Shown here in pieces: positions 29,932-41,667 of a stretch of 64,000 nucleotides of DNA. The stretch comes from Eledone cirrhosa (taxonomy: Eukaryota). The position numbers were made by a program, and so were the translations under genes. The stretch covers positions 15,438,001-15,502,000 of the forward strand of contig OZ024757.1 in assembly GCA_964016885.1 (NCBI GenBank), read 5' to 3'. The notes under the pieces are model-generated. The model saw only the letters and a list, made by a program, of their open reading frames with translations, searched no databases and was not told where the DNA came from. The first letter of the stretch is position 1. Each line of letters begins with the position of its first letter.

Positions 29932-30298
29932 CTGAAAATGTAAAATATTATTTGAAAATCTTATATATATATATATATATATATATATGTGTGTGTGTGA
30001 GTGTATGTATATATATATAGTAAGAGGTGTGCTAGCAGCTGAAGTGTATGATAATGTTATATCTGCAGGTTCGGTTAGACACTCTGTATTTATGCAGCTA
30101 TAACTTTATATATATATATATATATATATATATATATATATATATATATATATATATATATATACATGTAAAGTTATATTTAAAATTGTTGGGTTACAAC
30201 TAGTAAATATTTATAACTGATATAAAAGCACTCGACAAATATTTGGAGTATATTTACAATATTAAATAAATGGAAAACTATATTTATAAAACCATATT

Positions 30299-30364
30299 TA
30301 TTTCATTATATATATTTCGGGGATATCATATTAACAATATGCTATGCCTTCATCAGACAAAATA
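30299..30364 (-). ncRNA. Type I minimal hammerhead ribozyme (left arm)
   Basis: Mirror copy of 30519-30584 with a CTGATGA core. Confidence 0.6.
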
Positions 30365-30518
30365 CAATATAAACAGTTTTATAGATAAATATATTCAACA
30401 TACCGTAATAAACATCAACTTCATTTGAAGAGGTTTACGCTAGCGTAAACCTCTTCAAATGAAGTTGATGTTTATTACGGTATGTCGAATATATTTATCT
30501 ATAAAACTGTTTATATTG

Positions 30519-30584
30519 TATTTTGTCTGAGGAAGGCATAGCATATTGTTAATATGATATCCCCGAAATATATATAATGAAATA
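30519..30584 (+). ncRNA. Type I minimal hammerhead ribozyme (right arm)
   Basis: tattttgt-CTGAGGA-imperfect stem II (catatt/aatatg)-GAAA-palindromic (AT)4 stem III-TA-atgaaata; stem I has two GU pairs. Confidence 0.6.
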
Positions 30585-31044
30585 AATATGGTTTTATAAA
30601 TATAGTTTTCCATTTATTTAATATTGTATATATATATATATATATATATATATATATATATATTACATTTATCAACCACCACAATGTATAAAAAATTATG
30701 AGATATAATAATATACTAATGTTATCTTTATGATATGATTTGGTCTTCAGGCATCCTAAAAGCCAAATATTTCTTCCTTTATTTTATGTTCTTTTTTGCT
30801 ACGAAAGTACCTGAAATTGACCAGGGTTCTGTGTTACTAAGCTGTTTATTTTAACCCTTTAGCATTTACTTTACTCTATATTTTATATTGTATTTTCACA
30901 GAAAACATTTTACACTTTATTTCACATAATTATCTCATCTAATATCAAATCTACGAGATTTTGATACTTATTTTGAGAACAATATCTTAACATAAGTATG
31001 AACAGCTGGTTATGGCCAGTTTAAACAAAAAGAGGTGAGAGAAT

Positions 31045-31235
31045 TCTTCATCATGTTCCTGCATGTAGTGCAGTCAGTTGTTGGGGTGCTACTCTAGATG
31101 CTTTTGCAGTCAGTCATTGCCAGTTGTCTCTATTTTCCATCATGTGTAGAAGGGTTTCAGTGTTGTGACCAGTCCAGTCTTTGATATTGTTTGTCAAACT
31201 AGAATTTTCTTTGTCTGTCTCTTCTTTACCCTCCC
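31045..31235 (-). mobile_element. Decayed RTE-like LINE 3' fragment
   Basis: Minus strand gives RRDRQRK then, after a frameshift, NNIKDWTG...ENRDNW. Confidence 0.45.
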
Positions 31236-31475
31236 TCGATTGATAATATGTAAAGTGTTTATATATTATCTAAAAACCTTCCATTATAATTTCATGGAAG
31301 AAACTGTGTTATGTCATGTCCTAAACACCAGCATAATAATGAGAAAGTTAGTTATATTTCTAAATTTCTCCAATTTCTTCATTATTTTCAAAATGGTTTA
31401 AACATAGGTGGGGGTCTTCCAATAGAAATATGGTAATAAAAGGGTGAAGTTATGTCCCCAAAACAAGCTAAACAA

Positions 31476-31790
31476 TGAGCAAGTTGTAGTAGCTCGGAGA
31501 TTAGAGAGTCACTCCAGGTAGAGCCACTACTTCTCCAAATTGACACATCACAGCTCCGATACTATGGGCATGTGGTTAGAATGTCTCGGGGAAGAATCGC
31601 TGGACAGACATTATGATGGGCAAAACCCACTGGCAAGAGACCCAGGAGTAGACCCTGAGCAAGATGGTTGGATAACATCCATGAGCTTGGCTGGTAATGC
31701 TTGGGGATCCAGCCGGATTAGTTGGAGATGATTGCTTCTGACAGGACCTGCTAGAGGGAGTGTTTGAGGACTCTGCCCCTATGACTATCT
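31476..31790 (+). mobile_element. Decayed RTE-clade LINE 3' fragment
   Basis: Translates QLRYYGHVVRM...PTGKRPRSRP*ARWLDNI, resembling the RTE C-terminal GH..R / G.R..GRP..RW.D motifs, with stops. Confidence 0.65.
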
Positions 31791-31957
31791 CAGGAATACT
31801 TTTCTAAATAATTTGAAAATTATAGACAGTCTTAATCATTTTCTAATTATTGTGTAGCATTTATCATTAGAAACATGGCTATGTGAATGTTAAATGGATG
31901 AAGAAGTAAAACTCTTTTCTGTAAAAGAGAAGATTTAAGAAATGAATAATTATTTAC

Positions 31958-32035
31958 CCTCCAGTATTCTCAGTTTGTCTTCATCACTGATGGTTCCATC
32001 ATCTTTTTTTCTTTCCTCATCTAAGATTACCTCCT
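31958..32035 (-). CDS. Cav2: Cav2 exon, I-II linker (78 nt)
   Basis: EEVILDEERKKDDGTISDEDKLRILE continues the conserved KAEEVIL; tttcag acceptor, gtaaat donor; phase 1/1. Confidence 0.9.
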
Positions 32036-38890: not shown

Positions 38891-39450
38891 ATATTGTTAT
38901 ACTTTGGGAGGGTCATGTTGCCAATAAGAAACACACGCACCAGTTGCTTTCACTTCAATTTATTATATATTTATAAATTTACAAATTCATAAATCTATAA
39001 ATTTCTGGTTGGTTGGTTGGTTCCACAACCAGATAGTTGTTTATATATAGTCATAGTCCTTTCGTCACACACTCTGTGACCTCTTCAGTGACTGGGGATT
39101 CCTTTCTTTGTTTCTGTGCCTCTCCTTTTTTCTGTCCTACGCCATTTTGTTTCTGTGTGTGTGTTGTGTGCTCAGTTTGCGCATACGCCACATCCGGGTG
39201 TCTGTGTGTGTTTATGTTCATTTATCTATTTGTTTATTTATTTATTTATTTACATGTTATTGGTTGGTTGTTTGTTCTATGTGTGTGTGTTTTCATTTTG
39301 TCCTTAATTGTAAGTTGTGATGTTGCTGTTCCACTCAACTGGTGCGTGTGTTTCTTATTGGCAACATGACCCTCCCAAAGTATAACAATATCGGTTTCAA
39401 CACACGATTTCAGATAAAGAATCTTGCTAAACAAATTCAGAAACTAAATA
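38891..39450. mobile_element. Insert with 56-bp inverted repeat, internal hammerhead and one-sided tail
   Basis: 38891-38946 is the exact reverse complement of 39336-39391; the tail runs on to about 39450; short TA-rich flanks. Confidence 0.65.
39049..39093 (-). ncRNA. Minimal type I hammerhead, slightly degenerate
   Basis: AGTCA-CTGAAGA-g-GTCAC(agagtgt)GTGAC-GAAA-GgaC-TA-TGACT. Confidence 0.6.
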
Positions 39451-39486
39451 TATATAAATATGTATATATCAAATTGCTTTACTTAC

Positions 39487-39692
39487 ATAATATAATACCT
39501 GGGTCCATCCTTCCATAGTTACACACTGGAACACCGTCAACATCGCGAAACCCATGTTGTCAAAACTGGTAATTCCATAATTTGGGCCATTCCAATTGTA
39601 TCGACATTTAGCTATATTTGTTCGACACTGATAACTATTCGATGCGTCTCCGCAAGGCCGTATTGTTTCTTCGTCACCATATTCTATGTTGT
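39487..39692 (-). CDS. Cav2: Cav2 exon, repeat I turret and pore loop (206 nt)
   Basis: [15 protein letters not shown]...[34 protein letters not shown]; the selectivity-filter Glu lies in TMEGW; ttgcag acceptor, gtaagt donor. Confidence 0.97.
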
Positions 39693-39794
39693 CTGCAAAT
39701 AGAAAATATAACATATATGAATATATATATCTGTGTGTGTATGTGTGTGTATATTTATATACACATATATATATATCATCATCATCATCATTTC

Positions 39795-40113
39795 ATTTTA
39801 CGTCCGCTTTTTCCCTGCTTGCAAGGGTGGGACGGGAACTGATTCTGGCTTGATTTCTACAGCTGGATGCCCTTCCTAACACCAACCTCATTTACAGTGA
39901 GTGCTGGGTGCTTTTTTGCCGTGGCACCTCCACGACCACTTTACAGTGGAATGATAGGGACCACAGTCCCTATCATCTCATTTCTACAGCTGAGTAAACT
40001 GGAGCAATGTGAAATAAAGTGTCTTGCTCAAGGAAACAACACATTACCTGATCTGAGAACTGAACTCACAACCTTTCGATTGCAAGGCCAATGCTCTAAC
40101 CACTAAGCCATGT
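39795..40113 (-). mobile_element. CORE-like SINE with long tail ending in (ATG)n
   Basis: Near-identical copy at about 61636-61948; the tail segment ctggatgcccttcctaacaccaacc also occurs at about 38100-38310, 40930-41070, 54820-54980 and 63680-63870. Confidence 0.75.
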
Positions 40114-40261
40114 GTATATATATATATATATATATATTAAAATAACAGATAAATATTTGGTCTACGGTTCTTATATATTTGATATATATATATCCTTATC
40201 GACCCCTCTTTGGATTTTAGTCATCAAATTTATTATTATTACTATATATATATATATATAA

Positions 40262-40450
40262 GGGCGGTGGATTGGTAGTATCGGTAAAAGGTCAGACGCC
40301 ATGCTTTCCAGCATAGTTACGTCCCTTTACGATCTGAGTTCAAATCTCGCCGAGGTTGACTTTGCCTTTCATCCTTACGGGGGTCGATAAAATAAAGTAC
40401 CAGTAATGCACTGGGTAATTGCTGGCCTTGTGCCTAAGGTAGAAACAATT
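40262..40450 (+). mobile_element. tRNA-derived SINE with Deu/Nin-like central domain
   Basis: A-box-like head, GAGTTCAAAT B box, then GCCTTTCATCCTTACGGGGTCGATAAAATAAAGTACCAG. Copies at about 32120-32290, 34830-35270, 45440-45590, 48820-49040, 49160-49375, 55838-56020, 59970-60155 and 62320-62980. Confidence 0.8.
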
Positions 40451-41245
40451 ACTATATATATATATATATATATATATATATATATATATATATATATATA
40501 TATATATATATATGGTGAAGGCATGTGGCTGAGTGGGTAAGAAATTGGATTCGCAATAGTGAGGTTGTGAGTTTGATTCCTGGATCGACCGATGTTCTTG
40601 AACAAGACACTTTATTTCACATTGCTTCTTCTACCTGGAGTTGCAACTGATAGATAGTATTAGCAATTGGAAAAAACCAATAGAAACATTGTTTCCTCGG
40701 TCCAATTTGATGAAAGTCGATCGTTCCTTCAATATATCATATATATATATCGAGATCAATGGTGCTATGCAGACCCACCTTCCCTTATGTACAAACTTAA
40801 ACCTGCAGTCAGTAGGCACCTTTTAACCCAATATACACTCCACCACACACCCCTACTCCATCCTCCACTTCCACCCACACCACCCTTTCTCTGTAAAGGT
40901 TATGTTGGTACCAGACAGAACATCCAGTCCACACGGTAAATGTGGTTGGCATTAGGAAGGGCTTCCAGCCAGAGACAGTTCTATATGAGCAAGACATAAT
41001 CACCCGACCAATCTTGCTTCAAGTAGGACAAACCCATCTAGACTATGTTAGCATGGATGATGATGATGATGATGATATATATATTCCAAAGTAAGGTTGT
41101 TTTTTTTATATATCCCACACAGGTAAACATATAGAAAAAAATAAGTTACAGGTTATTGTAAATAAAACTTCTTAAAGACTTCAATTTCATTTTCAACTTC
41201 TTTTATTATGTATATATATATATATATATATATATATATATATAT

Positions 41246-41667
41246 AACGAAGGAAATGTGGTAAGGAACCAGGTGGACCATAACGCACCAAAGTACTCAA
41301 TACTTAGGGTAGTAGAGTGGGCAATAGGAACAAGTAAGACCCCGACGGCTGAACTCAAGCCGTTTCGACGGCTAATTCTGTACTGAATGAAAATTTATTC
41401 TGGTATTTAAATAGCCGAACTTATCAAGGGGTAATTCCATATATGGTCAAAGAGATAATCACCAGGATTGGTCACATCACAAGTTAGTAGTAAATCTGTG
41501 ATGGCAAGTTGGTGGGGGAAGGGGTAGCTAAACCTGCCGGTAGGAGAAAAAGGGAGAGGGGGTGGAGTAGACCCATTCATGCTTTGGTAGTGCCAGCTAC
41601 AGCTGGGTGTGAGGTCAAAGAGGATACTGGGGTCAAAGAGGATACTCGGGGTCTTACTTGTTCCTAT
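41246..41667. mobile_element. Insert in (TA)n with a 22-bp inverted repeat and hammerhead
   Basis: 41324-41345 and 41646-41667 are exact reverse complements; long (TA)n on both sides. Confidence 0.7.
41339..41432 (-). ncRNA. Type I hammerhead, U3-A8 core variant
   Basis: ACCCC-TTGATAA-GttCGGCTA...TAGCCGtC-GAAA-CGGCT(tgagttc)AGCCG-TC-GGGGT; all three stems pair; predicted cleavage after position 41344. Confidence 0.75.

Follow-up and report, generated by a model that had tools for sequence, protein, structure and literature searches.

Four short inserts carrying hammerhead ribozyme motifs lie in the introns of a calcium-channel gene of Eledone cirrhosa, and the question they raise is whether they form a new class of self-cleaving derivative or a kind already described. 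In the 64,000-nucleotide stretch of DNA analyzed here (the window), the inserts, E1 to E4, are very probably 5'-truncated, head-to-head 3' ends of four autonomous Penelope-like element (PLE) families, three of Hydra type and one unplaced, each probably left by one recent insertion into a TA repeat. They are mostly of a kind already described, E1, E2, and E4 being of Hydra type by their motifs, and add new families to it; the parent of E3 is the less ordinary part.

Architecture of the inserts

The original prediction of four TA-flanked, inverted inserts with a single-arm tail and a hammerhead was borne out: each consists of inverted arms set head to head with a tail on one side, lies between TA flanks, and contains a type I hammerhead motif (Table 1), the flanks of E3 being short, at only about (TA)4. 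The arms of E1 (193 nt, 98% identity) meet with a spacer of zero at a junction on a 6-nt palindrome, and those of E2 (613 nt) are 99% identical. The paired arm segments of E3 (38891-38946 and 39336-39391, 56 nt) are identical, and those of E4 (41324-41345 and 41646-41667) span 22 nt, the short inverted arm complementing both the cut site and the 3' strand of stem I. The inserts had been said to lack obvious primary-sequence similarity to one another, and insert-against-insert BLASTN indeed gave nothing better than E = 0.02.

Table 1. Positions, in window coordinates, of the inserts, their hammerhead motifs, the adjoining TA tracts, and the host exons.
Feature	Position	Strand	Remarks
E1 tail (~86 nt)	30163..30248	-	one arm only; in tandem copy L009/L031 continues into ORF start
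E1 arm 1	30249..30441	-	Hydra-type PLE 3' end; begins ~1.4 kb downstream of parent's stop
E1 arm 2	30442..30634	+	inverted, tail-less copy
E1 hammerhead	30299..30364	-	CUGAUGA core, palindromic stem III, C3 at 30356, predicted cut after 30307
E1 hammerhead, second copy	30519..30584	+	CUGAGGA, C3 at 30527, predicted cut after 30576
(TA)n adjoining E1	30107..30164		also 30627-30663
E2 arm 1	35720..36332	-	inverted, tail-less 3' end, Hydra-type PLE
E2 arm 2	36376..36988	+	3' UTR/pLTR, same family as E2 arm 1
E2 tail (110 nt)	36989..37098	+	
E2 hammerhead	36828..36948	+	92-nt stem II region, palindromic stem III, C3 at 36833, predicted cut after 36943
E2 hammerhead, second copy	35760..35880	-	C3 at 35875, predicted cut after 35765
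(TA)n tracts adjoining E2	35686-35722, ~37097-37120		
E3 long arm	38891..39337	-	last ~10 codons and 3' UTR of C-terminal-EN PLE with fingers insertion; tail-less
E3 short inverted arm	39336..39391	+	56 nt, without ribozyme
E3 tail (~59 nt)	39392..39450	+	
E3 minimal hammerhead	39049..39093	-	CUGAAGA, 2-bp stem III, C3 at 39088, predicted cut after 39054
E4 tail (78 nt)	41246..41323	-	in L106, L110, L143 continues into element body
E4 long arm	41324..41632	-	Hydra-type PLE 3' end; begins ~1 kb downstream of parent's stop
E4 junction and 22-nt inverted arm	41633..41667	+	junction is an 18-nt tandem duplication
E4 hammerhead	41339..41432	-	UUGAUAA (U3-A8) core, 6-bp stem III, C3 at 41427, predicted cut after 41344
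(TA)n tracts adjoining E4	41207-41246, 41665-41794		
Cav2 exon (domain I pore)	39487..39693	-	between E4 and E3
Other Cav2 exons	~50148-50056, 45840-45700, 44503-44405, 43103-42942, 37263-37151, 34489-34376, 32039-31953	-	

Parent elements

Extending the insert families to an ORF with RT and GIY-YIG, a check suggested from the outset, led to open-frame parents for all four (matches of 93-99%). E1 arm 1 is 99% identical to positions 1351-1546 of L031, behind a 738-aa RT-EN frame; E2 arm 2 matches L128, L131, and L134 at 93-95%, also behind RT-EN frames; the long arm of E3 matches L203 at 94% and reaches into the end of the L203 open frame; and that of E4 matches L140, L143, L210, and L211 at 94-98%. 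The families are high-copy, with members 96-100% identical, and full-length copies encode RT along with a GIY-YIG nuclease at the C terminus, both within one open frame. The RT motif YRDD/YVDD shares a frame with a GIY-YIG-type motif in L189-L193, L199, L201-L203, L205, L207, and L208. For E1 parents, 55 of 61 scored matches have no stop over 738 aa; for E2, 52 of 78 lie in frames of at least 782 aa (three of the 52 with a stop); and RT and EN occupy a single frame in 4/6 of the E3 loci fetched and 5/6 E4 loci, two E4 frames being 788 and 818 aa. A Pfam scan of eight proteins found no family in five to six of them (Hydra-type or frame-shifted pieces), RVT_1 scored above cutoff only in an unrelated neighboring ORF, and the ESM Atlas clusters returned were unnamed or RT/DUF8422 only. 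All four families show the partial tandem forming pLTRs, the inverted truncated copy, the one-sided tail, and, at the motif level, the hammerhead in the pLTR or 3' end that mark EN+ PLEs. Judged from these alignments, each insert is the 5'-truncated 3' end of an autonomous RT and GIY-YIG element, not a member of a new non-autonomous class.

By their diagnostic motifs, the parents of E1, E2, and E4 are Hydra-type PLEs. The RWK motif reads RIRWR (E1), RVRWK (E2), and RLRWR (E4, L208), with Arg for Lys in two, and DKG is replaced by DKT (SDKTNN, ADKTSN, and SDKTGN/SDKTRN, respectively; one E2 copy has DTT). The linker is CxCX5C, with CxxC and CxH around the EN end and CCHH absent. No fingers insertion is present, the spacing of RT motifs A and B being 59 in P0001 and P0002 and at the median of the 102 measurable proteins out of 123. 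A (TA)n preference holds for 107 of 115 ends of these three families. In a quick RT tree that did not include named Hydra references, the three parents group with unnamed homologs at 100% SH-aLRT. The Hydra clade includes Hydra-1_Obim from Octopus bimaculoides, and both (TA)n preference and hammerheads have been reported for it (Craig et al. 2021, PMC8557442); the likeness of our parents to the printed Hydra-1_Obim was judged by eye.

In the parent of E3, 131 residues lie between RT motif A and RT motif B and include a conserved insertion of ~70 residues. Among its homologs, this spacing is at least 120 in 70/70 and 67/67 measurable proteins (of 93 and 145, respectively), versus 61-67 in three canonical-type proteins. 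For a structural model of the parent, telomerase RTs occupy the top 14 VIA rows (Z 14.8, rmsd 3.8, 369 aligned), and residues 686-783 resemble the GIY-YIG domain of I-TevI (Z 10.2, rmsd 2.1, 88 aligned); Pfam gave RVT_1 and GIY-YIG, both below cutoff. Homology of the insertion with the TERT IFD is not demonstrated, because PDB searches gave no telomerase, the E3 protein sequence finding no match and the E3 profile only two weak matches to bacterial RTs.

Placement of the E3 parent among named clades was attempted by motif. The Hydra clade was rejected, as RW[KR], DKT, or CxCX5C patterns occur in 0/93 E3-like proteins. A linker reading CIDKKCITC, two Cys in the GIY-YIG core, and downstream His residues agree with the CX2-5CxxC/CCHH type of Neptune and Nematis, and the CX2-5CxxC pattern is present in 62 of the 93 homologs, many of which are partial. 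A canonical Neptune/Nematis RT has no A-B insertion, however, and was also rejected: its spacing is 59-67 (PMC8557442), it is without the long N-terminal low-complexity region of the E3 parent, and the printed rows of those clades show DKG and PKIHK/KTHK where the E3 parent has DKS and KDHK. A fingers insertion is given only for Naiad/Chlamys (~20 aa) and some Coprina (PMC8557442); Naiad/Chlamys, with an N-terminal GIY-YIG and no canonical hammerhead, was set aside for all four families, which have hammerheads and a C-terminal EN. A strict C-terminal GIY-YIG pattern was found in 7 of 53 long E3-like proteins, a count from which we conclude nothing, and in a quick tree built without the named references, E3-like proteins form a separate group (14 rows, 95%). 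By these motif descriptions, the E3 parent is set apart and is not matched to any named clade. We put forward only tentatively, as something that may well prove wrong, the combined proposal that it represents an unnamed, widespread PLE clade uniting a C-terminal GIY-YIG, a hammerhead, and an RT carrying, at the telomerase insertion-in-fingers position, a conserved, folded insertion of ~70 residues, several times the size of Naiad's, and that octopod genomes of this type hold ~200,000 PLE hammerheads, the largest animal load that we found reported.

Insertion and origin of the inserts

Enrichment of (TA)n flanks, another of the proposed checks, is pronounced: 149 of 157 copy ends adjoin a (TA)4-type tract against a background of 11.7%, and 154 of 157 fall at one of two fixed positions per family, in a sample of the best-scoring 30 loci per family that is biased toward young, tailed copies. 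The tails, at 59-110 nt, exceed the published length of 30-40 nt. Copies E1 and E2 lie within 0.5-2.7% of other family members, and two variants found in both E2 arms occur in none of the other 34-35 copies. Of ten further E2 arm pairs, two have arms whose mutual distance is not below the family median, and in five another locus is equally close or closer. No empty-site joint was seen among the matches listed from four contig sets, where repeat copies swamped the matches.

In the model that we favor, the GIY-YIG nuclease of the element would cut TA-rich DNA, and the RT would initiate on element RNA at either of two internal sites, yielding a tailed or a tail-less end. A two-site RT start has been seen in vitro for the anole PLE PAc (Frangieh et al. 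2024, PMC11167929). Synthesis would halt early, and the arms would join at a short self-complementary or microhomologous point, whether through fold-back or through priming from the two target strands. In this model, the hammerhead would serve the element itself, probably working as a dimer on tandem element RNA or aided by the element protein.

The inserts might instead be non-autonomous, retrozyme- or MITE-like families copied as palindromic units. They are short, ORF-free, ribozyme-bearing, and high-copy, animal retrozymes are reported as derivatives of PLE pLTRs, and the 51 matches listed include at least two further loci with the zero-spacer junction of E1, although this junction can arise anew because it sits on a palindrome of the parent. 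We nevertheless consider this origin very unlikely: arm lengths differ widely among loci, the shortest being a few dozen bases and the longest whole ORFs, every insert can be aligned colinearly to the 3' end of an element with an ORF, the window contains no retrozyme-type tandem ribozyme arrays, and the inserts are not built, as non-LTR retrozymes are, of a non-coding ribozyme unit repeated directly in tandem. The original picture of a radiation of microsatellite-targeting derivatives keeps its Penelope-like origin, (TA)n targeting, and several unrelated families, and loses its separate retrozyme-like radiation, autonomous parents being present.

Hammerhead motifs and the host gene

Only E1 and E2 contain two ribozyme copies, the short arms of E3 and E4 carrying none. 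That the folds are chance matches in AT-rich repeats could be argued from the proposed Rfam check, whose 104 matches at E ≤ 5 include no hammerhead family, and from weak monomer folding: without the inverted arm, the minimum-energy structures of E1, E2, and E3 are not hammerheads, the E4 motif alone being predicted to form a three-way junction. We give this reading a negligible likelihood. Canonical-core matches scoring at least 12 number five between 27300 and 64000, versus a mean of 0.02 in 100 shuffles, with a descriptor that limited stem II to 90 nt, mis-paired the E2 stems, and missed E4; a later, wider descriptor pairs the former correctly and detects the latter, adding two weak matches, at 31813(+) and 46354(-), that are probably chance. 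In 300 kb of arbitrary genome, there are 22 motifs versus 0-2 in shuffled samples, and the position of the hammerhead is fixed near the PLE 3' end. Conserved cores and compensatory stem changes had been anticipated, and in E1 relatives found by sequence similarity, CUGANGA and GAAA are retained in 18/18, N7 being the sole variable core position. Stem cells of these relatives are 96.9% paired, the stem II register having been drawn on the same alignment as used for this count, and their three double-sided stem changes track mostly one subfamily split. Diverged E4 relatives keep both core boxes in only 4/7. On this evidence from sequence, the hammerhead motifs belong to the PLEs and are almost certainly not chance.

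The host gene is of Cav2 type, on the minus strand, with each insert in a different intron; a Cav1 assignment, from a single-exon PDB search that ranked Cav1 over Cav2, was subsequently rejected. A ribozyme copy sense to Cav2 had been claimed for each insert, and a minus-strand copy is present in all four, but the implied relevance to Cav2 is not supported by folding predictions. In the pre-mRNA, the inverted arm transcribed just ahead would mask the hammerheads of E1, E2, and E4 (predicted costs of 97, 162, and 10.6 kcal/mol, respectively), and that of E3 is predicted to be unmasked but, with its 2-bp stem III, weak as a monomer. We thus predict that the hammerheads are passengers that do not cut the Cav2 transcript efficiently. 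A contrary case, that they cut or regulate the pre-mRNA or are kept for a host role, can point to the four sense copies, the three-way junction of E4, the unmasked motif of E3, and the start of E2 and E3 within ~50 nt of a splice donor. It appears highly improbable when set against the predicted masking, the genome-average density, and reports that metazoan PLE hammerheads cut poorly or require protein; moreover, the sense copy is automatic for E1 and E2, which are too young, at 0.5-2.7% from their families, for host selection to be discernible.

Density and significance

The elements are not dense here, as "4 in 12 kb" had suggested: four in the 64-kb window equal the genome average, with 4.3 expected. 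Four or more would be expected with a probability of 0.008 in the hand-picked stretch of 11.5 kb, 0.23 in the 37 kb lying outside the satellite, and 0.62 across the window. Extrapolated genome-wide, the arbitrary sample gives ~2 × 10^5 hammerhead motifs (about 1.4-3.3 × 10^5), far above the 2,000-9,000 per genome found with another descriptor (Cervera and De la Peña 2014, PMC4209133).

Young families with many open frames and sharp double ends offer material for studying the inverted, tailed insertion of PLEs and the role of their hammerheads, and the E4 motif, predicted to fold as a monomer, should be easy to assay. The fingers insertion of E3 bears on the PLE-telomerase relationship if its lineage proves unnamed. 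Hammerheads occur about every 14 kb, often enough to allow testing across the genome for selection against intronic ribozymes in sense orientation. The 613-bp and 193-bp near-perfect hairpins in the Cav2 pre-mRNA may also be candidate substrates for A-to-I editing, given the RNA editing of cephalopods.

Comparison with known systems

Elements of the Hydra clade (PMC8557442) resemble the E1, E2, and E4 families in their single ORF with RT and C-terminal GIY-YIG, RW[KR], DKT, CxCX5C, (TA)n targets, 3'-end hammerhead, inverted truncated copy, and one-sided tail. Differences include a longer 3' UTR (the E1 unit is ~3.9 kb, and Hydra elements are generally <3 kb), the 78-110-nt tails, and the long stem II of E2 (92 nt) and E4 (54 nt). 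The hammerhead listed for Hydra-1_Obim differs by eye from all four here, and the U3-A8 core of E4 is missing from the Hydra rows read in File S2 (PMC8557442). Minimal PLE hammerheads (PMC4209133) are likewise type I, with an extra base after A9, a palindromic or minimal stem III, a U3-A8 variant, and motifs that come in pairs on opposite strands at distances of 100-700 bp. Poseidon PAc of Anolis (PMC11167929) shares the two fixed ends bounding a tail, a published PLE tail signature, as well as AT-rich targets and a cut site away from the element end; it belongs to a different clade, and its tail lies inside the ORF, whereas that of the E1, E2, and E4 parents lies in the 5' leader before it. 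Animal non-LTR retrozymes (bioRxiv 10.64898/2026.07.22.740005) are similarly short, non-coding, hammerhead-bearing, and related to PLE pLTRs, but they are tandem direct repeats, whereas the inserts described here are single inverted stubs with autonomous parents.

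Inserts and ribozyme motifs in the Cav2 gene

The inverted arms, one-sided tails and TA flanks proposed in the original prediction were confirmed in the window sequence at all four inserts (E1 to E4, left to right), with arms of 193 nt in E1 (a near-perfect fold-back), 613 nt in E2, 56 nt in E3 and 22 nt in E4. A type I descriptor recovered a hammerhead motif at each of the four, and canonical-core matches scoring at least 12 numbered five, whereas 100 block-shuffled versions averaged 0.02; an Rfam scan of the window did not find the hammerhead. In the E2 motif the GAAA is distal, the stem II region spans 92 nt and stem III is palindromic. 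The E4 core, UUGAUAA, is the U3-A8 variant also found in Schistosoma Penelope-like elements (PLEs) by Cervera and De la Pena (PMC4209133). DNA comparison between the inserts gave nothing significant, in keeping with the lack of obvious similarity first noticed.

The best named match of one exon, at 88%, was an Octopus vulgaris protein called "calcium channel type A subunit alpha-1-like". This same protein aligned to eight exons on the minus strand of the window (85-100%) and extended into neighbouring stretches. This multi-exon match, together with an I-II linker that we take to be of Cav2 type, supports Cav2, despite Cav1 ranking first in a PDB search with one exon. Each insert lies in a separate intron, and each carries the Cav2-sense ribozyme copy claimed for it. 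In the pre-mRNA, the complementary arm precedes the sense hammerhead. Equilibrium predictions put the cost of forcing the hammerhead fold at 97 (E1), 162 (E2) and 10.6 (E4) kcal/mol with the arm present, versus 6.2, 5.3 and 1.2 kcal/mol with it absent; in E3, with a 2-bp stem III, the predicted cost is 2.8 kcal/mol and is not affected by the arm. Further features of the gene and its surroundings are listed in the table.

Features of the window, G000:C18:15438001-15502000 (positions in the window unless a locus or contig is named; L, other loci fetched from the same genome; G000:C1, a contig of the assembly)
Feature	Location	Remarks
E1	30163-30634	
E2	35720-37098	
E3	38891-39450	
E4	41246-41667	
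E3 parent	L203 1114-4785(-); E3 portion 38891-39337	RT with ~70-residue insertion, motifs A-B
E1-type zero-spacer fold-back junction	G000:C1:989549-989922; C1:396517459-396517831	Palindrome in parent's 3' UTR
Canonical-type PLE beside an E4 copy	L141 4456-6597(-)	Third PLE; 714-aa frame, RVT_1 above cutoff
Near-perfect hairpins, Cav2 pre-mRNA	35720-36988 (613 bp); 30249-30634 (193 bp)	Candidate A-to-I editing substrates
Splice donor to E2	37098-37150	~50 nt; intronic
Splice donor to E3	39450-39486	~36 nt; intronic
Satellite array in Cav2 intron	17-27223	49-bp unit, ~564 copies, 94% matches
Other array	52191-54330	26-bp unit
Other array	57014-59831	45-bp unit
SINE-like dispersed repeats	34856-35284, 40245-40382, 48814-49042, 55839-56041, 59952-60156, 61067-61204	77-90% mutual similarity; occur in either orientation
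Weak tRNA matches	40053-40110, 61884-61941	

Core conservation was examined in E1, for which 20 relatives below 93% identity were found by similarity; three spurious rows were removed and 17 aligned with the window copy. The expected conservation was borne out, with both boxes invariant in 18 of 18 rows apart from N7, where all four bases occur. Across this alignment 96.9% of stem cells are paired and three pairs have changed on both sides, changes that mostly represent one subfamily split, with the stem II register set on the same alignment. Both E4 core boxes are kept in four of seven diverged relatives, and the diverged relatives of E2 (three) and E3 (one) are too few for a conservation test. 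Metazoan PLE hammerheads cleaved poorly alone in one published study, and Frangieh et al. (PMC11167929) describe one that cleaves only with the element protein.

Families, ends and genome-wide load

Every insert is a member of a high-copy family. First-look candidates numbered 807, 1610, 2477 and 3605 (E1 to E4), and among the 40 scored in each, full-length matches were 96-100% identical, with one at 93%. Among the best-scoring matches to the parents (full-length copies with RT and GIY-YIG in one frame), a selected set and not a census, 55 of 61 E1 frames had no stop and 52 of 78 E2 frames reached at least 782 aa, three of these with a stop. The E1, E2 and E4 parent proteins share 41-44% RT identity and carry RW[KR], DKT, CxCX5C, CxxC and CxH, the same set that Craig et al. 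(PMC8557442) give for the Hydra clade. Among the entries in their supplement is Hydra-1_Obim, an O. bimaculoides element credited with a preference for (TA)n and with a canonical hammerhead, so the combination originally predicted was already published for Octopus. Judged by title, theirs was the only relevant paper found on octopus and hammerhead ribozymes; a separate paper (PMC13282606) counts 31 Penelope-like families as recently active in O. vulgaris, and the word "ribozyme" is absent from the part consulted. The inserts are real and well supported, and represent families, possibly new ones, of an already described kind of element.

For the ends, 30 loci per family were surveyed, and exclusion of overlaps and of ends with less than 300 nt of context left 157. 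Just two positions, tailed and tail-less, account for 154 of these. Targeting of (TA)n stood up well, as (TA)4 adjoins 149 of the 157 ends versus 11.7% of random 22-mers. Four of the eight exceptions continue into the element's 5' part, which indicates that the tail is the beginning of the next unit of a tandem. This two-ended, tailed arrangement is the published PLE layout, and Frangieh et al. connect the tail with RT initiation at two internal positions (PMC11167929). The predicted ribozyme cut coincides with neither copy end. PLE families also often lie nested side by side (L128, L131, L134, L138, L145, L146), as expected if TA tracts left by one insertion attract the next.

Two variants common to both E2 arms are absent from all other 34-35 copies, a sequence pattern that would fit one event and one template; ten other E2 arm pairs gave a mixed signal, with 0-7 differences per ~329 nt. 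The arms of E1 meet at a 6-nt palindrome of the parent. This junction is found again at two or more other loci, which agrees with the palindromic junctions that Arkhipova et al. remarked on (PMC3846280).

Thirty 10-kb stretches at round coordinates (L148-L167, L178-L187) held 22 hammerhead motifs in 300 kb, versus 0-2 in 20 shuffles, or about one per 14 kb. These belong to many different families; the U3-A8 core occurs in four and a perfectly palindromic stem III in 11, and (TA)5 lies within 300 nt downstream of 18, versus 26% of random places. The sample, which is not size-weighted, extrapolates to ~2.2x10^5 motifs in the 3.0-Gb assembly (Poisson range 1.4-3.3x10^5). The prediction that the elements are dense here did not survive: the 20 elements per 300 kb sampled give 4.3 expected in 64 kb, against four observed, and the cluster is ordinary. 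The ten stretches adjoining the window hold three motifs in 100 kb. The leads worth keeping are this genome-wide ribozyme load and the E3 lineage.

The E3 lineage

Hydra motifs are absent from all 93 E3 homologs, and the E3 parent does not belong to Hydra. Motifs A and B of its RT are separated by 131 residues, and the spacing is at least 120 in every homolog where it could be measured, 70 of the 93 and 67 of another 145. The insertion is conserved in the lineage and modelled with high confidence, and the structures nearest to the predicted model are telomerase RTs and I-TevI. One O. vulgaris protein, which bears the annotation "dynein regulatory complex subunit 6-like isoform", aligns with 21% of the E3 parent protein at 77% and is either an exonised element or an annotation error.

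The E3 parent is possibly an unnamed PLE lineage. In the consulted part of Craig et al., a fingers insertion is given only for Naiad/Chlamys and some Coprina, and six E3 motif strings had no match in the supplement, where long sequences are partly cut (PMC8557442). A search of the open literature found no description of an E3-type lineage. Because of that scope, and because Neptune is paraphyletic, the lineage may instead be an already deposited Neptune type. The E3 parent resembles Neptune and Nematis in its CX4CxxC linker and CCHH-type nuclease, and its A-B spacing is unlike the 59-67 residues seen in the Hydra-like and three canonical-type proteins.
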